From contig CM102284.1 of the NCBI GenBank assembly GCA_046563655.1, forward strand, positions 3,224,001 to 3,288,000: a stretch of DNA of 64,000 nucleotides. Direction: 5' to 3'. The notes beneath the pieces are model-generated. The model saw nothing but the letters and a program-made list of their open reading frames with translations. It did no database searches and was not told where the DNA came from. The translations under genes were made by a program, and so were the position numbers. The stretch comes from Yuukianura sp. NJ FZ-2021. Lineage: Eukaryota. This document shows, piece after piece, positions 7,212-50,042 of the stretch (the first letter of the stretch is position 1; every line of letters begins with the position of its first letter).

Positions 7212-10200
7212 ATGTCACAGAAATTTCAGTCAATGACTGAAATAGTAGCACTCTTTCTTGTTATAACCTTCATTCTGACTTTCGACTGGAGACCGGCTGA
7301 GTGCGACCATATTTATACTCAACAGCGTCAACATCACGCGCCATTAGTGGTGCCGGCAAGCGGTGAGTTTCCTCTGTCACAACTTTTTTTTTTATAAATG
7401 AAATATTGCATGCCTTTTCATGGTAAAGTGATGTGCAAGATTCCCTTCCACGCTTATATCTTTTGGAAATCCTTGTTGCTGCTGTTTCATACGTTTTAAC
7501 TTCCAAGACTAATTTCTTATAACTCATTTTCTGAATTATATTCTAATAGTAAAACATATTTCATATAAATTTTGGCGAAATGAGAGCATTTCGATGCATT
7601 TAGTAAATTTTTTGGCAAAAGCGCTGAAAATAAAATTAGGGTAAAATAAGGGTTTTCAATTTCAATTTTATTTTCATCTTTTTTAGATCTACAACATTAT
7701 CGTCGTGAATGGTCACCACAAATTCCCACAAGAGATGAAGCAGATTCAAGGGGCTTCCCCACACAACCATCATTGTTGTCGAAAATGGGCCTTTGGCCCC
7801 GATACGTCAACCTGCCGTCAAGGTCAAAGGTATCGGAGACGCTAGGTGCTCTAAATGTACTTGGAGGGTACTTTTTGCGAAAAACAATAATGGCCACGCC
7901 TAACCAAAATGTCGAACAGCATGAGAAATTTACACAAAACAATCCAGAAAACGAAGATGAAGAAGAAGACGAAGACCCACTGAGCGCCGAGTTAAGTGAG
8001 CAGCAGAATGTCGTCACCCAAGCTCCAGTATTAACTGTTCGCCCAGAGCATGATGAGAAATTACGTCAAGCATTGTATACGCTGGGACGAAATGTTCTAG
8101 GACAGGTAACAAACTAATCCTGTGATAATTTCATTAAGAACATACTAGCGTTAGTGCATAATTTCAGTAGCCATGTTGAATTGCAACATCAATCGTTGTT
8201 TTCAACCAATCAACCAGTTTTTTTTTTTTTTTTGGATAAATGTTAAAAAAGCTTCGGTACTTGGAATAAATAGCCTGCTCAAATCAATCATAAAAGTTTG
8301 GGTCTGTCAAAAATTAGGAAAACTCCCATAAACTACTATTAACAAAAATTTCCCATTGCTTTCCACTTTAGAGGAAAAATTTCTTCTGATTCGATTTTTC
8401 GAAGACAGAAAACTTACAAAACGTTAGTATTCGAGCTAACTCCAAAAACGAAGTTTCAGAAACCCTGGAAAAACTAATATATACTGATAGCGATCATTTA
8501 CTATATTCGGTGTTATTTATTTACAGAACGTGACTGACTCACTAGTTCCCGTAGTTCAAACGGTGAATCAAATTGGAAAATTCCTTCCTCCATTAGTTTA
8601 TCACGATGGTCGAATTATTCTTGGTAGTGGAGCCAACTCTACCAAGGATGGAGGCCCAATCCGAGATGTCGTTTGCACCACCCCTTCAGGCGGACCGGGG
8701 AAATGCCTTGACCTTTCCGGATGCCCCTCTTTGCTGTTTGACCTCAACAATCTCCGGAAATCCCTTTGCTTCAAGGCTCTCTTCGTTCCAGGCGTCTGTT
8801 GCGCAGATGAGGTCAATCAGAACTTAAATCCTAGCCAGACATTGGTTACCAAGCGTCCAGCGCCGATTCCGAAACCAACAACGGCAAAACCAAACCAAAT
8901 TGTTACGAGAACACCGATCCCCACCAATGACGTTCGAGTTCCGCCAACATTTGAGACGCCGGTAAAGAGTCCGTCTGATGATGAACAATGTGGTCAATAC
9001 GAGGAACCTTCATTTCGAATCGTCGGAGGAGCCAAATCGGTTCCAGCATCATGGCCGTGGATGGCGGCAATTTTTCTCCACGGTCCGAAAGGAACGGAGT
9101 TCTGGTGCGGCGGCACGCTTATTTCGAAGCAATACATCTTGACAGCGGTAACTTAATGCCATTCTTTAATTACTGGGTTTATTTGGCTAAGATTAGTTTA
9201 AACTATTGAAATTCAACTCTTTTTAAATTTTGGTAGGCACATTGCACTAAAGATCAGAAGCAAAAGTCGTTCACCCCACGCCAGTTTTCAGTACGACTTG
9301 GGGATTACGACCTGGTAAAAACAGACGACTTTGCAGAGCCTGCTGTCTTTCGAGTGGCAGAAATAATTCCGCATCCAGATTTTAGCGGAATGGGTTTTTA
9401 TAATGACGTGGCGCTACTTCGGTTAGATCGAGATGTAACATACAGCAGATTCATCAAACCTATATGCCTTCCAACTGGGCCGGCAGCTAGAAATACGTTT
9501 GTTGGTACCTTTGCAACGGTCATCGGATGGGGTACGGACAAATACGGCGGACGAGAAAACAATGCTCTACAAGAGGTTAAGCTGCCCGTTTGGTCAAATG
9601 CAGAGTGTGACAAAACGTACTTCCAGCCCATCACCGACATCTTTCTATGCGCTGGGCTACCATCAGGAGGAAAGGTTAGTGAATACATTGCTATCAAACT
9701 TATTGGAAGCGGTGGTTTGATCCGTGTTTCCTGAGTACGCCAATGCGTTCAGTAGCTGCTTATTACACTAATGTATGTCAGCGCTTGATTAAATGGGAAT
9801 TTGATTTTCAGGATGCGTGTCAAGGTGACAGCGGAGGTAAGAGCAGTGTTTTCGACAATTTTTTTTCTCAAAGTGATGACCACATTGCTTATACAATCCC
9901 ATTTTCAACATTATTTTAATTTCAGGACCTTTGATGCTGGAACTGGAAACAGGAAGGTGGACGCAAATTGGAATAGTTTCGTTTGGAAATCGATGTGCTG
10001 AACCCGGCTGTAAGCAATTTAATAAAAATTTAAACAGAATTAATCCGGAACTTGTATAACTTACTGTATGTTTTGTGGAATTCGCAGATCCTGGGGTTTA
10101 TACTAGGTATGCCTCTCCGTCAAATCCGTCTGAATTTCGATACTCTAAACCGATACTTTATTTTATAATTTCAGATTAACAAAATTCACATCATGGATTA

Positions 10201-17375: not shown

Positions 17376-20300
17376 ATGTCCCGGAAGTACAGTTACGGTA
17401 AAAGTAAGTCTCACGGGGGAGGAGCAGGTCTGCAGTTTGATAAGCTCCTCAAAGCTTGTAGCAACAGTAAGAAGCCATCAGTAACTAACACTACAGGAGC
17501 AGTGGGGCGTTTCGGGATCACATCCTTTACTTCAACCAGAAAGGCTGCCTTTGATGATTCAATCACCAGTAAGGCTTACTAACACCTTCAATTCAATTAA
17601 GTACTTAAGTTGAATTTTGGAAGAGGGTATTGATCGCTTAACTGCTTTTTATTGAATGTTATCGTTCTAGATGAGGAACAGACGTTTCCTCTTCCGAAGA
17701 GGCCTAGATTTGATGTGGATCGGAATTTGTCAGAACTCAATAGTGATTCTTATCCTTATGTGGAGAACTTTATGATGCCTTTTCGAACCGGTTCAAGTGA
17801 CCCACCTCCAGCTTCTGCTGTTATTATCAAGCCGAAGAAATTTTTTAAATCCCGAAACACAGACGCCGAACAAAGTCAAGGTACAACCGAAACTCCTCCA
17901 CCGTTACCAATGCCGATAAAAATTCCGACTCCACGCGTCCCTCAGACGAAGCAGATTAAACCAGCGGGGAGTAAAAAGCAAAATAGGAAGAAGTTGACAA
18001 CTAGCAGCGATTGCAGTAGTGAAACTGAAGGGAGTGTCAACACCAACAATGCCGGTGAAGTTGCTTCAGAAAGTAACACATCTTCGACAAGTCCTTCAAT
18101 TAAGCTTAGGATATTCAAGGACAAGAAAACGGCCAAGTTTGTTTTAGTTTCCGACACAACCCTGCCGCCAAAACTTGAGGCTCAAGTTCAGAAACAGGAG
18201 ATCGATTTTGTAGATACTCATCCGAAAAAACGTGGTAGGAAGCCAAAAACAGAGAGTGAAGTTGTTAAAACTAGTTCGAAATCAGCTAAAGTTCTCAAGG
18301 CAAAACCCATTCCTTCGCGAAGATCTGGACGTTTAACGAGGAATAGCTCGTCCTTGCGCTCGAATTCAATTGGAGACATGCCGGTCCTAACCGCCGCGGA
18401 AGACAGTCTGGAGAGTGACGAGGGTGACGACTTGGGCCAACCGTTTACGCCTTTGCCACGAACGGATACGGATGCCATCATTCAGCCGGAACTCCAAAGT
18501 CAAAGTGTTGAGAAGGTCGACTCAGCTGAACAGTTAGTACAACGACTTCAAGAGGAAGATGTGGAATTTCGAGAACTGAGTGCGATGCTGTCGTCCATGG
18601 AAGAAGTTCCGGAAAGTCAAAATGAAAAAGTTGAGGAAGAAAATGTTTTGGATTTGGCATTGGGTTCCGCTTCGCCCTTACCCCAAACAGAAACAAATAC
18701 AAATGAATTTCAAGAAAAAGTAACGCCACAGCCGTCGCCTATTGACTATTCAAGGAATGTTCCAGAATCTTGTCGAAGCCCGTCATTTTCGACTCAAATA
18801 ACCGTGGAAACTCAAGGCCCTAATCCAGAATCAGTGTCACGAGATTTCCGTACCATTCTGGAAGACGAATGGGATGAGACCTGCGAAGACGAATCTCCTA
18901 GACGCTCTTCTTTATCACCAACAAAAGTATCACGATTCGTAATGCCCGAGTTTTCCACAGAAAATCCATCGCCCTCACCGCCCTCTGGAAGACATTCTTC
19001 CAAGAACGAACATTTTTACGATTCGCCGAATTTTTCAACTCCAGTTCCACTTCCTGCTCAGCCGCCACTGAATTCTTCTTACTCCGTTCGAAATCTAATT
19101 TCGGAGATAACCAACTGCGAATCCGATTTTCAAACGAATTGCCCATCTACAGAGTACGGTGACATTCCTCTGGAATCTCGTTTGTATGGCAACGAAGAGA
19201 GTCGTTTGCCACGCACCCCGGAGAAACCAGTGACATCAAGAGACATAATAGGCTCAGCAAAGAAAGTTTCCATTTTTAAGAGTCGCATTAACCCTATGTC
19301 GAATCAGTCTGGATCAGCAATAAATCCGAAGAAACGCCTTGCGCTGTACAAACACAAATTTGGACAAGGTGCAGTTGACAAAGTGGACTTGGAGGGGCTG
19401 AATCCGAACCGTGCAGCGAATACTTTAGATGACGGATTCGGTGAGACACTGTTGGATTCGTCGGAACCGCTGAGTCTAAGAAGAAGCAGAACCGGTGAAG
19501 ATGGAAATGAACTGGAAAAGGGCTCTTCCAAGGTGTACTGTTCTCAACAGACGAAGAGGTTGTTCACGGTTGTTCGGAATGTCAAGGCAGTTCATGAGCT
19601 TCAGGAGTCCGGAGAGGTCCATGAATTCGATGGTGATATCTGGTACATTTTAGAGGACTTGAAACAATCCAACCCGGTATCCAGCAGGTAACTTGTAACT
19701 TATAACAGTCTGGATCCAGAGGAAATATCAAATGGCATTTGATTTATAATGACAATTTCAATTTATGAATTTTGTTTGCCCGATATGTCAATAGGTGCCT
19801 GTCCGCAATAACTTTAGCTACGAGGTGTATGGAACCAGCATTTAGAATGCATTTACGAGCACATGGAACTGTCGCTGAATTTTCCAAAGAACTCCGAGAT
19901 GCCCCCAATAATATACCGGTTAGCCATGTTAACCTTAATAAGAGTTTGTCATTTTGTGTTTCCCGATTACGGGAATAGCATTTATGTATTGTTAATATTT
20001 GCTGGTTTTAGGTTTTAGCATTAGCTGCTGCAACGGTTTTGTTTGTCTTGAGTCAAGACAGACTAAATATGGATTTAGATACAGAAAGCTTTCTACTCAT
20101 CCTCGCCTTGGCAAAAACTGAACAGAACTCCCAACTCTTAGACGAGAACCCTGAGCTGATTAAGCATAAACAGAGGATTATTGACCTTGTTCAAGAAATG
20201 AAGAACCGAGGTCATGCTAAGCACATCAAGGTTGAAAAGATCACGGTGAGTTTGATTTCCGATTCTTAGAAACCGAAGTTCAAGAGAATTGTGGTGTTGT

Positions 20301-22165: not shown

Positions 22166-25100
22166 TTAGAACTCGTACGAGATGAAATTGAGGGTTACTG
22201 CAATAATTGTTAACATTGTGATGTGGTAGTGCTTCTCAGCTGAATTTACCGTGAAAATACTGATAGCGGCAAAATCTTCTGGAACAAATGCTTGACATTC
22301 CTTAGTGCTACCGGACGTGGGTCCTCCTTCTACTAAAAGCGCAGTTGATCTTATACAGATCGAGGTCATTCCTGGGACAGGCTGTAGTTGGGCACTTCGT
22401 ACGTTGTAGCTAAAAACTCTTGTCCAAAGACTTTGCTTCTTAGAGTCCTCCAAAGTAAGTTGGAATCCGGACATCTCAGCCTTTGAAGTAACGACACTCC
22501 AGACAATCTGGATAATATTTTGCCGGGTTTCCACTCTTCTGATTTCTAATTCCTTCTTTGGAGAAATAATCGGCGCAAGGTAGTCTGTATTGTCACAAAC
22601 AAGTTCCGAGTCTGATAGGCCCTGCAGTCGGATCGCTGCTTTACTAGTTTTGGAGATACATTCAGCCTGCAAGTAGTCTTTGTAGAACAATGCCGAGTTA
22701 TTGGACAGCTTCTGCCGGAATTCTTCGAAGAAACGAACCAATGGTACGAATCGACAGTCGCAAGCGATTGGATTCTGGTTGAGAAGGATTCTAGAGCCGT
22801 TTTGAATTTTTGTTACAAAAGCTGCATCCAGAAACGGAATGGCGTTCGCAGTCAAATTCAGCACCAGAAATGGAGCTTTCTGTAGCACTTCCACTGGGAA
22901 TTTGCGCAGTCGGTTCCCTTGTAGTTTTAGTTCTCGAAGATTTGGTGGGGGTCCTATTGCAGCGCTATCCAGGATTCCAATGTTATTGTAACTCAAATCG
23001 AGCGTAGCTAGGTTAGACAGATTGCCGAAGACACTTGGGCGTATGTCTGAAATTGTGTTGAAGCTGAGGTTGAGGTCAACTAAAGTCTTAGTGCCGCGGA
23101 GAAAGTCTTTGGTGATAGAAACAAGGAAATTGTGACTGAGGTCGACGTGCAACAGTCGATATGGAGTCCATTCTTTGGATGGAAATGTGAGTGCCTTCAC
23201 AGACGAAAAACGATTGTGTGAAATGTCCAATGTTTCTAGGGAAAGATTTTCTTCAAAAACACATTGGGTTCCGTTTTCTGTCCTTTCGATGAAATTGTGA
23301 GACAAGTTGAGAACTTTGAGCGACACCAAACTGCTGAAGCATCCGACGACAAGTGTAGAGATGTTGTTCCTGGAGAGGTTGAGAGTTTGAAGTTGAAGCA
23401 ATCCGTCAAAAGCTTTCTGTTCGATTGTGTCGACTTTGTTGTTAGAAAGGTCAAGGTTGAACAGAACCGGAAGCCGTCCAAAAGCAACTTTCTTCAGAGT
23501 AGTGATTGAGTTATCTGCCAAATCTATCCTTTGAACAATAGTCAGGGATGACAGGGCATCGATTGGAACCTGAACAAAATCAGTGTTTATATACCCGACT
23601 CATGAAATTAAACTTCGAATGTAACATCTTCTGCTCACTTCTGATAAGTTGTTTTGTTCCAGTTTGATTTCTTGGAGAGTCCCCAAACCACTGAAGGATC
23701 CCCCATCAAGATTCCCACCCAATTGATTCCCGTTAAGGTTGAGGCGAAGGAGAGCGTTCATAACTGGCCAAGCCTTGGCGAGTGAAGTAATTTCATTGTT
23801 TGACACATCCAAAGAACTTAGTGAACCCGAAATCTAGAATGCATAGTTTTAGTTTTGATAAAACGTAAGCGTCCAAGTTAGTATAATTCAAACTCGAAAT
23901 TACCACAGTAATTGAACCGAAGATTTTACCTGGAAAACTGATTTTAGCTTGTTGTCGCTCACATCTAGATGACGCAGGGAAGCCAATTGAGTAAAAGCGG
24001 CTGGACTAATAACTGAGATGACATTGTGTTTTAGTGTAAGGCCAATCAATGTCGGAATTGTTCCAAAAGTAGAACCTCGAACTTGACTCATATTGTTGAA
24101 ACTGCGCACACAGAAGCCAATGTTAGAATTTAAACTGAAAGACGTAGAACCCTAGGTTTAAGCAACTCCACGATTACCTCATGTCAAGGTGACGAAGACT
24201 GAAAAGACTCGTGAAAATGGCAGCGTGAACTTTCGAAATATTGTTATGACTCAGATCCAGAGTATGCAGTTCGTAAAGCTTTGGAAATGTATTCTTCGGA
24301 ACTTCTTCTAATTCGTTGTACGATGCATTCAGAATTTTCAGACCATGGAATGATTTCAAAGGAACGTTTCCAAGACTTGGCAAAAGATTGAACTCCAATC
24401 GCAATTCTGTTGGATAGGAAAAATCGTCGAATGTCCCACGCGTGAAATTTTCAATCCGATTGTGGCTGAGGTCAAGCACAGTGATGTTGACACAGTTGAC
24501 GAAAGAGTCTTTATCAAATCTTGATATCTCGTTGTGGCTCATATTGATGGCAACGTAGGACAGGTCCTTAAAGGCTTCCTTTTTGACGTCTGTGATTACA
24601 TTCTGTGACACGTCCAGGATTTCAGCCTGCGTAAGTCCAGAAAACAGTTGGTAATCGACCACACTTAGACGGTTTCTGCTGAGGTCAATTGTTCCGATTT
24701 TGTTGATGGCATCAAATGTTGAGCGACCAATCTGGAATTAAGTATAAATTAATTTTCAGTAGCTCAAAATTGATCAAGAGAGGATTGTTGCTACTAGTAC
24801 GTGTTTCATTACATCAACTATTAAATTGTCACTTAGGTAGAGACGCCGCAAGAGCCGCATCCCCCTTAGTGTAGTGGCATCCAGCTTTGAAATTTTGTTA
24901 TGCGTAAGGTGAATGACACGAAGGAAGTTATTTCTGGCAAATGCCCCACGCTTGAATTCTGGAATTTGGTTGTGTGATCCATTGAACCACGTTAGTTTGG
25001 TCAAATGATTGAAGTAACCCGGGTCCAACTTTGAGAACTTGTTGAACGAAATGTCAAAAAACTCCAGACTTTTTTGTTGCTAAAATCAAAAGAAATCAGC

Positions 25101-44001: not shown

Positions 44002-45859
44002 ATGAAGTACGGTATTATCGATGTGGAATTGGAGCAAGAAGTGTCACAAACTGACAAATTAGCAGCAGTGGATAGTAAGTTTGAGCTTAAAAAAGATGCT
44101 TTTTTTTGGTTTTCGAATTTTGAAAATGGAATTTTGGTTAGGCGAGGGTGGAGCAAAGAGGAAAGCCAGCGTGTTGGAGGCTTTAAATGTCGACGTTTGG
44201 CTGTCGACTGAAGTCGTTCGTGACGACTATGTAATGCACTGGAACATCGAAGACATTCGTAATGCCGGAAGCCCCGACGTCATCAAATCACCACTTTTCA
44301 AAGCAGGGCGCCAACTCCAGCACATTTGGCAAGTGGAGGTCACTCCAGTTCAGGAAATCGAAGGTGACAAGTACCTCGGGGTTAGAGTGGAGCTGGTTGC
44401 CTTTGCTAACGAATCAGAGCATGACGCTGGGCGACAATTGAAAGTCTCCCTGGAGGTTCACGTTGTGGACAAAGACGAAAAAATCTGTTATGGACTCGAA
44501 GGGTTAGAGAAACATTTGAAATTTTAAGCTCAAACTCCCTTTTTCAAAAAATGTTTCTCAGTTTTTGAAATTTTGTTTAGCACTGACTATATTGGTAAGG
44601 GCGGCACCCTTGGATGGCCTCAGTTTCTCAAGGCCAATGACCTTGACTGCGTCCTTCAGAAGAACGGCGATCTTCGCCTCTTGGTTGGCATCACAATTGA
44701 AATGGACACGCACCTTCAAGGTAAAGGTGCAGAGGTCACCAAGGTCACGTCATGCCAACCTCCGCCATTAAAGAAACGCTGCACCAGTAAGGCGATTGAC
44801 CTCGAATCGTTCAAAACAACGGAAACTGCTGATAAGTCATCCGAGGAGCCAAGCTACGTCTGGAAACTGGGTGACGAGGCGCCAGATTTTGAAATTGTTA
44901 CGACAGAAGATGGCGTCGACAGTCGTATGAGAGTTCAGAAATCTGTTTTGGCGGCAAAGAACATTTTTTTCAAAAAACATTTCGAATCGGGTCCAGCAGA
45001 TGAACAGGAATCAAAGTACTTTGGAAATGTTTATCCAGAAGGAATGAAAATGGTTTTGGACTTTATTTACTACGGAGACCTCGATGAAGAATTAATTCAC
45101 CTAAATCCAACGTACATGTTTGAATATGGCACACTATTTGAAGTGCCTGAAATCAAAGACTTGGCTGAAGCTGTGTTGGTGGACAGCGTTTGCGCTGAAA
45201 ATGTATTTCGGCTTTATTGGAGCGCTGAAAACTTCCATGGAGCTAAGCTGCTGGCAAAAGTCATTGAGTTTTTCAAAAATCACTCGGATCAAGTGTCACC
45301 CCATGACAGAATACTGCTGGAAGATGAGTTGCACCTTGGGGATCCACCGATCACTGAAACACTGTCGTTTCGGCATTTCCAAGACCCGACAGACTACGAA
45401 ATTGTCTGTTCCAGTGTTAAATTCCTCGTTCACAAGTCCGTTTTAGCAGAAAAGAGCAACATTTTGAAACAAATTGTCAATTATGGAACTTTATCTGAGC
45501 AGAAGTCATTGTACATGTACTGTGCAGGTTCAGAAACAATCAAGACAGTTCTGCAGTTCATGTACACTGGAAAGGCCAGTGAAGATGACCTTGAGAAGTG
45601 CAAGAAAAACCCTGAGGAAGTCTTTCGACTTGCGGAGTACTGGGAGTTGCCGGAATTCAAAACTTTGTTTGAAGAATCCCTGTTGCACAACTACATCTGC
45701 GCAGAGAACGTGTTCAAGTGTTACTTTGTGCTTGGAGATATCGCTCCGAAACTGAGGGTTCAAGCATCCGAGTATGCACAGAACCATCCAGCACAATTCA
45801 CCACTGCTGTGCTAAAGTACTTTGATGACATTCACACGAGCAATTCCTCCAGGACCTGA
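44002..45859 (+). CDS. MATH-BTB-BTB protein (SPOP/TDPOZ-related Cullin-3 adaptor-like)
   Basis: Exons 44002-44074, 44142-44502, 44581-45859; MATH (MHWNIEDI..IKSPLF..WQVEVTP..YLGVRVEL..LGWPQFL..GDLRL) followed by two BTB domains, each with KSVLA.K, VL.F.Y.G and CAENVF. Confidence 0.85.
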
Positions 45860-46662
45860 AATTTTGAAAACTGATTTCTAAAAACATTTTTCATAACAAG
45901 AAAACAAGATTCTTACAAACTACTGTTAAGGTTTAGAAAACCTTGTTTTTCAAAGAAAAAAATAAGTAAAAATAAAAAAGTGGTAAAACATATTCATCTA
46001 TGTAGTTTATTTTATTCTAGCACAAAACTTAATATGCCTGCAAAACTTGTGCTTAAAACTTCTGTGAAACGCTTTTTAAAATCGCGTCATGTTGAAACTT
46101 ACTCAGATATTTCTCGGTTAGTGTATTATAAAATGTGGGAATCTTGAAAGTGAAAAAAAAATAAAAGATAAAAAAATATGAATTCACTAAATTAACGACC
46201 AAAGCAAATGTCAAAGAAATTGAAACAAATTCAAATCAATCAGTTTTCCGTTTTCGCTAATCGCCGTTCCTGCATCCTACCTTACCGTACCGTAACCTTC
46301 CGCTTCCAGACTCCAGAGTGACCTTCCTACATTTGCATTCTGGAATTCATTTCGATCAGCTGGAGAGGGGTTGAAGAAAATATCGGAACGGAAAAACGGA
46401 ATAGCATCAGAGAAAAACTATTTCTGAAAGATTTAATTATAACCGTAGGCAGCACAAGCAGGTAATCAATCCGCAAACTTAATTGCATTTCTCTTAACCT
46501 AATTAAACTTATGAGTTACAATCTTTATGTGAATATGAGCTACTGTCATCTGATCTGTATAATTGTAATAAATTGTGTCATTACAATTTTAACTGCCATT
46601 CTTTCTCTTTCTATCCTATAGGTCCAGTAACCCGGACCTTCCTGCTGTCCGATTTTGAATCC

Positions 46663-47600
46663 ATGGCAACCGCTTCACTACCATCGACAGACGATAAAAG
46701 TGGATCACCTGCTGGAGGCAGTCAAGGTTCTGCAGAAGATCAGGACAGCTTCGATCTCACCGGACATCATCCCACTCGAGATACGTTAGCCGAAGGGATC
46801 GTATCACTTCTATCTCCGACCCTGAAAACTCTGGACGAAGGGGTTCTCGCTACAAAGTATGATTGTTTTAAAACCAAGGGAGCTATTTAGATAAAATACT
46901 CTGAACTATTTCACTCATATTTAATACTATGCTAAGTCTGATTCTGAACTTTATTTTAGGAGAAGTCAAGAGGATTTAGCTGAACAGATTGCATTGTTAA
47001 CAGAGCAGTTACAGTCCATCGCAGCGGAACAATCTTGTCCAATCGACTTGAACGGGTATGCTTACTAAACGATAGAAATACTTGTCTAAAATTATCTTGC
47101 CGCGCTCTTATTGAATATGAGCTAAATCTAAACATTAAGGTATGTAACGAGGCTTGGAGACATCAAGGGAAAGATCAACGTAATTTCTTCCGTGCTGCAT
47201 AGTGCACAGGTAAGACACCTTTTTAGACTGTAACATCAAAGTTGACGTGAATCATTTACGCCAAAGTGTATTACTCATTCACTGTGTGAATGAATAGCAA
47301 TTTCGGTTTGTTTCAGAATCCTCATCTTAAAACTTATTTTTATTTTAGGATCGGCTTAACAGAGTGCACGAACAAGCATTGAGAGAAGCAGCGCGTCGAA
47401 AGCCTTTGCTGGAACCTGCGCCATCTACTACATCTGGCCTTTCTTCCAACGCTAAGAAGCCCTTTGTATCCTCTGACGAAGACTCGGATACAGAACAACC
47501 TTGCAAGAAAGGTGGAGGAGGTGAAGTCGCTGCTGAAGCGGAAAGGACAATTCCATCTCCCTTAACTGATCCCTTGACCGACTCATCTCCTTCTTCTTAA
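46663..47600 (+). CDS. SNAPIN: SNAPIN (BLOC-1/BORC subunit), 203 aa
   Basis: Exons 46663-46856, 46960-47055, 47140-47209, 47349-47600; PTRDTLAEGIVSLLSPTLKTLDEGVLATK|RSQ...CPIDLNG|YVTRL...SAQ|DRLNRVH matches Snapin. Confidence 0.9.
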
Positions 47601-47676
47601 ACCTTAACCACCGGAACACAATAACTAATTACGCTTACGAACTCTTATTATTCCACCGAGTCCATTCCCGGAAACG

Positions 47677-48466
47677 ATGACTGAAACCGAAGAGCCCTTC
47701 ACAATCCGAACCCCAATCATACCAATGAACACTCCTTGGAACGCACAAGTATACGAACCAGCTGAAGATTCATTCCTCCTGCTAGACGCCCTACAAATGG
47801 ACATTGGCCGCCGACTGAGTGAATTGGACCAATTCGCGCCGGTACTTTGCCTTGAGATTGGTCCGGGTATGTTTCTACTATTATCACAAGGAGCTCATAC
47901 ATGTTACAACAGTTGTGACTAATAAATGTCATTGGTTTTCAGGTTCTGGAGTAATTTCGGCTGGACTTATGTCGACTAAATACTTCGGAGAACACATCCC
48001 CCTTATTTTCACACTGGATATTAACCCAAATGCCTGTCTTCTCACTCAGAAGACTTCGGAGACAAATAACTGCCAAGGAAGGGTGGAATGCATCCGTGGC
48101 AATGGACTCGAGGCCTATTTGACATTCCGAAATCGTTTTGACTTCATCATTTGGAACCCACCCTATGTGCCCACCCCACCGTCGGAACTCGAATCGTCAG
48201 AAGAGAATGCTTGGCTACGAGAGTCCTGGGACGGTGGCCAAGATGGGAACAAACTGATTCTCCCTTTTATGAACATGATTCCAAAGCTACTGCATGCAAC
48301 AGGATGTGTGTATATGGTCCTCAGTAGCTGGAACCAGCCGGAAGAGCTTATGGAGTCTGTGCTGCCTCCGCTTGGGCTGCAAGGGCATCCAGTCCTTAGA
48401 AGAGCCGCAGGCCGTGAACGACTCAGTGTCTGGCGAATTGAATATGTGAAAGAACAGAAACCTTAA
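47677..48466 (+). CDS. N6AMT1: HemK2/N6AMT1 glutamine methyltransferase (eRF1)
   Basis: VYEPAEDSFLLLDAL, SAM motif CLEIGP|GSG, DINP, WNPPYVPT, SWDGG.DG, GRERLSV; exons 47677-47866 and 47943-48466. Confidence 0.95.
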
Positions 48467-49003
48467 ACTGTGGCTTTTGTATTTAGAACCGACTGTTTAA
48501 CTGTTTGTGAGATTATCCACTTGTGTACGCTTTGTTCCATAGATCTAGCCTTGTAGTAGGTACTACAGTGAAAGTGTTCACGTTTAGCACTCAATGTAAG
48601 ACACAAAATCATAGCTGCTAACTAGTACTGCTAGCACTAGTTGCCTCTAGGTTACTACTGGTTCCAGAACTTTAAGAACAGTGTTGCCTAACTGTGCTGA
48701 CCGATTTTCCTTGTGATTCGTGCCTCTTGTGTAATTTGTTAACCAATTTGTGGCAATGACTTTAAGATAATTGTCGCTAAATGTCGCTTCAACAAGTGTC
48801 GGAATTGTCACAGTAGTAGACGCGGTATCATCTAATGTGATACAATTCAGAAGTTAGTATTGTGTACGTATCAATGTACCCATAAGTAAAAAGACAGTAA
48901 TTTGGTCAATGTTGTTAATTTACACATTTATTTCATTATAATGCTGCAGATTAATTTGACTGGCACTCCGTAGAATGTGTGTAACTTATCCAAAAAGCAT
49001 TCA

Positions 49004-49176
49004 ATTCAGGCAGGGGTATTTTGAATTTTGAGGAAATCCGGAAAACATGCTTTTTGTTTGTTTTTTTTAATCACTGAATAACTAATTGGATTGAAAAGAT
49101 GCTGGAGAAATCGTAACGTTACTTTTAATTGACCGTTTCTAAAGCAAGACTATAAATGCCGGGCGTCGTCATCTAC
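49004..49176. repeat. Dispersed direct repeat copy A (paralogous to the CCDC47 stop/3' UTR at 50043-50188)
   Basis: Colinear blocks CAGGGGTATTT, GGAAATCCGGAAA.CATGCTTTTTG, ACTGAATAACTA, ATTGAAAAGATGCT, AATCGTAACGTTA, CCGTTTCTAA, CGTCATCTAC are shared. Confidence 0.92.
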
Positions 49177-49200
49177 TAAAATGGATGTTGAATTAGTTGA

Positions 49201-49659
49201 CTATGCAAACATTCCGACTGCGGCCAGTAGAATAGGGACAATTTTACTGCATGTCTGTTTTGCAGGTGTATCGTCCTTCACGGATTCTGGATTTCCTATT
49301 TCAACCGTAGGCTCCTCGTTCACAATTTTCTCGATTTCAGCATCCGTGCACTTGGTTAGCGTGGAGACTCTCCCATCAGTCTTCACGTCACAGCATTTGT
49401 CTTTAATCTTCTTCGCAATAGCAAGGTAGCTGAGCCCTACTTCTTTCGGAAAAGGGCTTGGCTGGCCCTTTTCATTCACGCCAGTCTCAAACATTTTCTT
49501 CATGTCAGCAGTGAAGTTTGGAATGTAATTTTGGCAATCAACGGTAGCAACGTCTTGCACGTACTTCAGTTTGTTCAATCCATCCTTAGGTTGAGCTGAT
49601 TGCCCATTGCAAAAACTGACGACACTGGAGAAAAGAGCGGCACGCAGAAGCCAGCTCAT
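49201..49659 (-). CDS. Secreted protein of unknown function with an intronless CDS, 152 aa
   Basis: MSWLLRAALFSSVVSFCNG signal-like N-terminus, five Cys in the mature part, hydrophobic C-terminus; AATAAA on the minus strand at 48927-48932; no family recognised. Confidence 0.65.
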   Translation of the reverse strand: MSWLLRAALFSSVVSFCNGQSAQPKDGLNKLKYVQDVATVDCQNYIPNFTADMKKMFETGVNEKGQPSPFPKEVGLSYLAIAKKIKDKCCDVKTDGRVSTLTKCTDAEIEKIVNEEPTVEIGNPESVKDDTPAKQTCSKIVPILLAAVGMFA

Positions 49660-50042
49660 TTTTAGGATTGAACCACGTGACGTCCAAATTCTCCAGAGTA
49701 GGGCATGACCCTTAGTTTCAATTCTTCCGATCAGCAAATCGCAACCTTCAATGTTTGCACCTAAGAAAGTAAAACTGTGACAAAAACGAGTTGAAGAATG
49801 GTTGTTATTGTGCTGTAAAGTTCAATTACCAATGCAGTTGCTAAACAGCCCGCGAAGATTCCGAAAACAATCAAAGTTTAATGGAAGTTTGAAAAGGTTG
49901 AAGTCCAGAATTTGGAGCAAAGATAAATTGGCGTCAAACAACAGAAAGTTAGAGTTCCCGGGCATCCCGCGATATTGTTTTAATAAGTGTGGGTGATTTA
50001 AACGAGGTAACACGTTTTCATGGAAACCAGGTCGTTGGTTAT

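Follow-up and report, generated by a model that had tools for sequence, protein, structure and literature searches.

A probable springtail orthologue of the dicistronic snapin-HemK2 gene of Drosophila

We describe a Snapin-HemK2/N6AMT1 gene pair in a 64,000-nucleotide (nt) stretch of the genome of Yuukianura sp. NJ FZ-2021 (GenBank assembly GCA_046563655.1, contig CM102284.1, positions 3,224,001 to 3,288,000 of the forward strand), hereafter the window, whose own numbering is used throughout. The locus (46663-48466) is probably the springtail orthologue of the Drosophila snapin-HemK2 (CG9958-CG9960) dicistronic gene, and we infer from its sequence that both open reading frames (ORFs) are carried on one mature mRNA, on which HemK2 would be reached by leaky scanning. 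An initial annotation of the window had proposed such a unit, and the proposal gains support at the sequence level from the pairing of the two genes, their order and strand, the AUG poverty of the first cistron in all four informative related loci, and a HemK2 cistron that is not depleted. The comparative signature, in five divergent loci, is a first cistron without in-frame AUGs and poor in out-of-frame ones. The unit itself is not new: this case of one eukaryotic mRNA making two unrelated proteins has been published, and the present locus extends it to a basal hexapod. What is new here is comparative evidence that selection removes AUGs, out-of-frame ones included, from the first of the two springtail cistrons only, in a pair that alone is syntenic.

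Results

The Snapin coding sequence (CDS) lies on the forward strand at 46663-47600 and comprises four exons, which when spliced by script give 612 nt and a protein of 203 amino acids (aa). Exon 1 (46663-46856, 194 nt, ending in phase 2) begins with the ATG at 46663 and is followed by a GT donor at 46857; exon 2 (46960-47055, 96 nt) has homologous exons in three of the related loci described below (L001, L002 and L004); exon 3 (47140-47209, 70 nt) contains the sole extra ATG of the first cistron; and exon 4 (47349-47600, 252 nt) encodes the last part of the coiled coil, then a long Met-free tail of low complexity, before the TAA stop (47598-47600). All Snapin introns are of the GT..AG type. 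HemK2 follows on the same strand after an intercistronic spacer of 76 nt (47601-47676), with no gene in between; the spacer contains no ATG, nor any TG dinucleotide, and is G-poor (9 G). The HemK2 CDS consists of two exons totaling 714 nt (237 aa): exon 1 (47677-47866, 190 nt), which begins with the ATG at 47677 and aligns by tblastn with HemK2 in L001-L005, and exon 2 (47943-48466, 524 nt), which encodes the GSG S-adenosylmethionine-binding loop and the NPPY motif and ends with a TAA stop (48464-48466). On re-reading and splicing of the sequence, each coordinate and count of the initial annotation proved right.

A putative intron in the 5' untranslated region was seen by eye at 46462-46621, with a donor at 46462 (ag/gtaatc) and a pyrimidine tract and acceptor (ctatag) ending at 46621. 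The sequence 5' of it (46211-46461) is ATG-free, and the putative intron itself has three ATGs (46511, 46527 and 46535).

The first ORF is a Snapin orthologue and the second is HemK2/N6AMT1. Snapin exons 1 and 2 give colinear matches to the Pfam family Snapin_Pallidin at profile positions 1-24 (residues 40-63) and 28-57, with scores of 14.3 and 16.1 bits, each of which is singly below the cut-off of 29.6. Aligned with Snapin from the springtail Allacma fusca, which carries PF14712, the spliced product shares 67.6% identity across 179 aa, with exon 1 colinear; the next best named proteins, from a copepod and a firefly, are 47-48% identical. Run against 1.84 billion representatives, a Snapin profile recovered 294 relatives at E <= 0.001, and word-index searches found 2 proteins with the L005 Snapin as query and 19 with a 43-sequence profile. 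HemK2 exon 2 matches Pfam MTS at 25.3 bits (cut-off 23), and a word-index search with HemK2 found 22 proteins at E <= 0.001 among 141 candidates, the named hits including eRF1 methyltransferase MTQ2, N6AMT1 and HEMK2. Five HemK2 relatives have organism names, namely the springtails Orchesella cincta, Allacma fusca and Folsomia candida (39-49% identity) and two fishes (36-38%), and NPPY is invariant in 21 of 21 aligned HemK2 sequences. Snapin is a subunit of BLOC-1 and BORC, and HemK2/N6AMT1 is the glutamine methyltransferase of eRF1.

In the 685 nt of spliced Snapin and spacer between the two starts there is a single ATG (47142-47144), which is out of frame and directly followed by TAA (47145-47147), confirming the count made in the initial annotation. 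Dinucleotide shuffles (n=1000) of this sequence contain a mean of 7.5 ATGs (SD, standard deviation, 2.1; P(<=1) about 0.001), synonymous-codon shuffles that keep the protein a mean of 3.7 (P 0.014), and codon-order shuffles a mean of 4.9 (P 0.018); the earlier estimate of about ten expected ATGs was thus roughly right, but 7.5 is the figure corrected for composition. The ATG density across the whole window predicts 11.4 ATGs per 685 nt, and every one of the 63316 contiguous 685-nt segments that the window contains holds at least 3. The HemK2 CDS has 17 ATGs in 714 nt. Spliced translation also bears out that the 203-aa Snapin has no internal Met, the initiator being its sole Met. The ATG poverty of the Snapin cistron is not due to chance. 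The minimal start-stop ATG-TAA at 47142-47147 is not conserved; the equivalent site in L001 reads ACG TGA.

Related loci were sought in metagenome contigs by a scan with a HemK2 alignment, which matched 37 stretches; five were confirmed as loci (L001-L005) and read by tblastn with both window proteins and hand-built gene models. L003 has about 30 nt 5' of its HemK2 start and was left out of the adjacency count, and the L002 Snapin is partial at the contig end. In all four informative loci (L001, L002, L004 and L005), the gene immediately 5' of HemK2 is Snapin, in the same orientation, with ATG-free spacers of 82, 192, 111 and 54 nt, respectively. None of the four Snapins (203, 192 and 186 aa, and a partial one of 126 aa) has an internal Met. 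Out-of-frame ATGs in the Snapin cistron number 3, 3, 0 and 4, respectively, and each of the 11 such ATGs, counting the one in the window, begins an ORF of 1-35 codons whose stop precedes the HemK2 ATG.

Compared with synonymous shuffles, the Snapin cistrons of the five loci including the window have P values for out-of-frame ATGs of 0.014, 0.059, 0.004, 0.032 and 0.63, which combine by Fisher's method to 2.8e-4, the loci being related so that Fisher P values are not fully independent. HemK2 served as an internal control and shows no depletion in six loci, i.e. the same five and L003 (P 0.25-0.92; Fisher 0.86). At the level of these sequences, the contrast in depletion between Snapin and HemK2 is clear. 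The 11 out-of-frame ATGs in the Snapin cistrons (window, L001, L002 and L005) all fall in the +1 frame (NAT GNN), with no +2 ATG among them, a pattern that probably reflects amino-acid composition, as +2 ATGs would need Cys or Trp codons.

The loci are well diverged, since their intron content differs: the L005 Snapin is intronless and the L005 HemK2 is a single ORF (L005:5218-6504), L004 lacks Snapin intron 2 (L004:5247-5412), and in L002 Snapin intron 2 is displaced by 4 nt (phase 0 vs phase 2; L002:168-250). Of the genes that flank the pair in the window, a BTB gene (44528-45856) and the ORFs at 44063, 49204 (reverse strand), 53846 and 40091 (reverse strand) have no tblastn match in L001-L005. 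These loci have neighbors of their own: upstream of the pair, L005 has a cortactin-repeat gene, and downstream of it, L004 has CCDC47 and a gene of the ERV family. Only the Snapin-HemK2 pair is syntenic across loci.

The spacer in the window contains no AATAAA or ATTAAA. The initial annotation had taken the lack of a poly(A) signal in the gap as evidence; the absence is true but carries no information, since only 0.10 sites are expected there by chance and the 834 nt after the HemK2 stop (48467-49300) contain neither motif, the sole variant being an AGTAAA at about 48885. Folding of the spacers revealed no structure beyond that of shuffles (z = +0.64 in the window, +0.64 to -1.51 across spacers), and a search of 45800-49300 against Rfam at E <= 1 returned 0 matches. 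Unstructured spacers without an Rfam match fit scanning rather than an internal ribosome entry site (IRES).

Met content was counted in Snapin relatives more widely, using 151 proteins (P0023-P0173), 106 of which begin with M and have at least 110 aa. Among these 106 full-length-looking proteins, internal Met residues number zero in 37, one in 26 and two in 20. Organism names came from 30 cluster look-ups, many of which gave no name, so the sample is small and non-random. Among the named arthropods, Snapin has no internal Met in Allacma, Condylostylus, Daktulosphaira and Ixodes hexagonus, one in Hetaerina, Lepeophtheirus, Cyprideis and Timema (the last with a doubtful N-terminus), and two in Aquatica. 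Outside the arthropods there are none in Ciona and Styela, one in Ephydatia, two in Littorina, 2-3 in crinoids, three in a brittle star, 3-4 in tardigrades and 6-10 in six nematodes. Arthropod Snapins are therefore at the low end of the Met counts, as the leaky-scanning model predicts.

Linkage of the two genes in other arthropods is visible in existing gene models. Three of the listed proteins are models in which Snapin runs into HemK2, from the beetle Asbolus verrucosus, the butterfly Parnassius mnemosyne and the ostracod Darwinula stevensoni; most simply, these are gene-prediction artefacts of a tight same-strand pair. One protein atlas cluster comprises 64 proteins, all from Arthropoda, of which 100% carry Snapin_Pallidin and 98% MTS; it may be the query's own cluster and is a lead rather than a test. 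In Allacma fusca the Snapin and HemK2 records both give a longest contig of 27749 nt, and this equality alone suggests that the two genes share one contig. A 978-aa model from the salmon louse, Lepeophtheirus salmonis, is named TTC7 (P0187), falls in one 90% cluster with a 142-aa Snapin and matches Snapin at its N-terminus; in this copepod, therefore, the predictor has joined Snapin to TTC7 instead of HemK2, and the two genes of the pair may be separated or rearranged.

Discussion

The Drosophila snapin-HemK2 mRNA is dicistronic, with a first ORF that has no in-frame AUGs and a second ORF translated via leaky scanning (Wall, Phillips and Kelly, 2005; J Biol Chem 280:27670), as related in the relevant passages of four sources that cite this work: a 2024 HemK2 preprint, a 2025 BLOC-1 paper, a paper on a silkworm tricistronic mRNA and a paper on green algae (PMC11892635). 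By their account, the Drosophila dicistron of a Met-free Snapin and a methyltransferase, which the initial annotation had given as a precedent, is real. Expressed sequence tags (ESTs) with both ORFs are given for Drosophila species, Lutzomyia, Bombyx and Daphnia magna in Table 1 and the supplement of Hayden and Bosco (2008; BMC Genomics 9:61, PMC2276209), and the supplement prints the snapin upstream ORFs (uORFs) and HemK2 main ORFs (mORFs) from three Drosophila species, Lutzomyia, Bombyx and Daphnia. The suggestion that the unit is ancient was right but had been published earlier, judging from these ESTs out to Daphnia magna (PMC2276209), which place springtails inside the known phylogenetic bracket. 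A literature search of one limited collection found no paper on the Snapin-HemK2 pair in springtails.

In the window as in Drosophila CG9958-CG9960, one strand encodes these two proteins in this order with a short spacer between them, and in both the second ORF is an eRF1 methyltransferase for which access by leaky scanning is proposed. Neither first ORF has an internal in-frame AUG, going by the D. melanogaster uORF printed in the supplement of PMC2276209. They differ in that the window Snapin has 203 aa vs 134 aa in Drosophila (Table 2 of PMC2276209), because of Met-free N- and C-terminal extensions, and in that the window gene, which is known from sequence alone, has three Snapin introns and one HemK2 intron. 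The pancrustacean ESTs of Hayden and Bosco represent the same pair, springtails not being treated in the parts of PMC2276209 consulted, and the Bombyx uORF in that supplement has one internal Met, unlike the window Snapin. The Drosophila stoned (stnA/stnB) mRNA, which encodes unrelated proteins, likewise combines an AUG-poor first cistron with leaky scanning to the second. Green-algal bicistronic loci translated by leaky scanning have an AUG-depleted ORF 1 and a short inter-ORF gap, together with a weak ORF-1 start, according to PMC11892635, which names stoned and Snapin as parallels (see also PMC7896298). The algal loci belong to another kingdom, involve other gene pairs and are of independent origin.

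Under the leaky-scanning reading, a single capped mRNA would have Snapin as its first cistron and, after 76 nt, HemK2/N6AMT1 as its second. Scanning 40S subunits would mostly initiate at the Snapin AUG, with a fraction passing it. These would meet a single AUG in the following 685 nt, that of the one-codon AUG-UAA, and would therefore be expected to arrive at the HemK2 AUG, with its A at -3. AUGs in any frame of the first cistron would be selected against.

An in-frame Snapin-HemK2 fusion was considered as a separate candidate. It is ruled out by the Snapin TAA, by a HemK2 ATG in another frame and by the intron phases: Snapin exons end in phases 2, 2 and 0, HemK2 exon 2 needs phase 1, and with this mismatch exon skipping gives no in-frame fusion.

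Several observations weigh against the leaky-scanning reading. The Snapin family is Met-poor overall, so that the Met-free Snapin put forward in the initial annotation is a true observation but only partly diagnostic, 37 of the 106 relatives being Met-free as well; both named tunicate Snapins (Ciona and Styela) are likewise Met-free. The merged models have internal Met in their first 120 residues (Asbolus 1, Parnassius 1 and Darwinula 2); AUG freedom is not found in all linked pairs, nor is it confined to arthropods. The L002 Snapin shows no out-of-frame depletion (P 0.63), and the relatedness of the loci, noted above, tempers the combined P values. Start contexts are equivocal. In the window, Snapin starts with gaatccATGG (T at -3, G at +4) and HemK2 with gaaacgATGA (A at -3), in line with the earlier claim that the Snapin start is the weaker, but this is not consistent among the relatives: position -3 of the complete Snapin starts is T in the window, G in L001, G in L004 and C in L005, and all four have G at +4. 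At the HemK2 starts, position -3 is a purine in all six loci and an A in four of them, and the comparison of strength was made without a springtail consensus start context. Finally, each spacer contains a pyrimidine-rich stretch with an AG after it, 3-36 nt upstream of the HemK2 ATG (ctcttattattccaccgAG in the window, at -18 to that ATG).

This last feature favors the best of the alternatives, which we nonetheless consider unlikely: that these are adjacent genes and HemK2 is expressed mainly from an mRNA of its own, from a promoter inside Snapin or by use of a spacer acceptor in cis- or trans-splicing, the dicistron being minor or absent. To our knowledge, spliced-leader trans-splicing is not known in hexapods, which counts against this explanation, and a separate HemK2 mRNA gives no reason for a depletion of AUGs that is specific to Snapin and extends to all frames. 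Many polycistronic pre-mRNAs are processed to monocistronic mRNAs, as set out in the background of Hayden and Bosco (PMC2276209), yet single ESTs or mRNAs with both ORFs are reported from Drosophila, Bombyx, Lutzomyia and Daphnia in the portions of the literature cited above.

Less probable still is a dicistronic mRNA on which ribosomes gain access to HemK2 through a spacer IRES, or reinitiate once Snapin has been translated, rather than by leaky scanning. G at -3 and +4 of the L001 and L004 Snapin starts would, by vertebrate rules, limit leakiness and so leave room for such a mechanism. The spacers, however, are short (54-192 nt) and dissimilar when placed side by side, in addition to folding no better than shuffles and lacking an Rfam match. 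Reinitiation after an ORF of 200 codons is inefficient, and depletion of AUGs in a first cistron is the signature of access that depends on scanning. The authors of the silkworm tricistronic mRNA paper do argue, in the part consulted, for an extra mechanism besides leaky scanning.

Coincidence, in which ordinary neighbors are expressed separately and Snapin is Met-free because its family is Met-poor, would account for the Met-free relatives and for the lack of a poly(A) signal, which is expected by chance, but is strongly disfavored because the pair is adjacent in all four informative loci though their neighbors differ, out-of-frame depletion is specific to Snapin, merged models are widespread in arthropods, and the dicistron is published in other pancrustaceans.

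If the leaky-scanning unit is accepted, its age can be considered. It is possible, though we hold this only tentatively and think it the less probable case, that the unit of an AUG-free Snapin and HemK2 is older than Pancrustacea and dates at least to the arthropod ancestor, chelicerates included, having been held by selection against AUGs in all frames over about 600 nt. Hints in this direction are the Snapin of the tick Ixodes hexagonus, which has no internal Met; the range of 0-2 internal Met in arthropod Snapins vs 3-4 in tardigrades and 6-10 in nematodes; and the 64 arthropod gene models that merge the two genes. Less clearly, the Met-free tunicate Snapins leave room for an even older or a convergent case. 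If true, a pre-pancrustacean origin would place the unit among the oldest translationally coupled gene pairs in animals. The locus gives no answer as to why a BLOC-1/BORC subunit and an eRF1 methyltransferase are coupled. For annotation, gene predictors merge or mis-split the pair, and springtail annotations should carry two CDSs on one transcript.

Neighboring genes and minor observations

The BTB gene introduced above encodes a BTB/POZ protein, is transcribed in the forward direction and ends about 800 nt upstream of Snapin. On the other side, a 206-codon open frame on the reverse strand (49201-49821) converges on the 3' end of HemK2 and has no Pfam match and no match in the related loci. 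Farther upstream, the window contains a fragment of a CLIP-domain/trypsin protease (8491-9153, forward), as suits an arthropod genome, a long ORF that ends in the start of a WAPL domain (17634-19688, forward), and two leucine-rich-repeat ORFs (22169-24737, reverse). About the first 45 nt of one related contig (L002:1-45) resemble the reverse complement of an Illumina adapter, presumably contamination at the contig end. Within the window, the 5-nt sequence GTATG is found both at the donor of Snapin intron 2 and at the start of exon 3.

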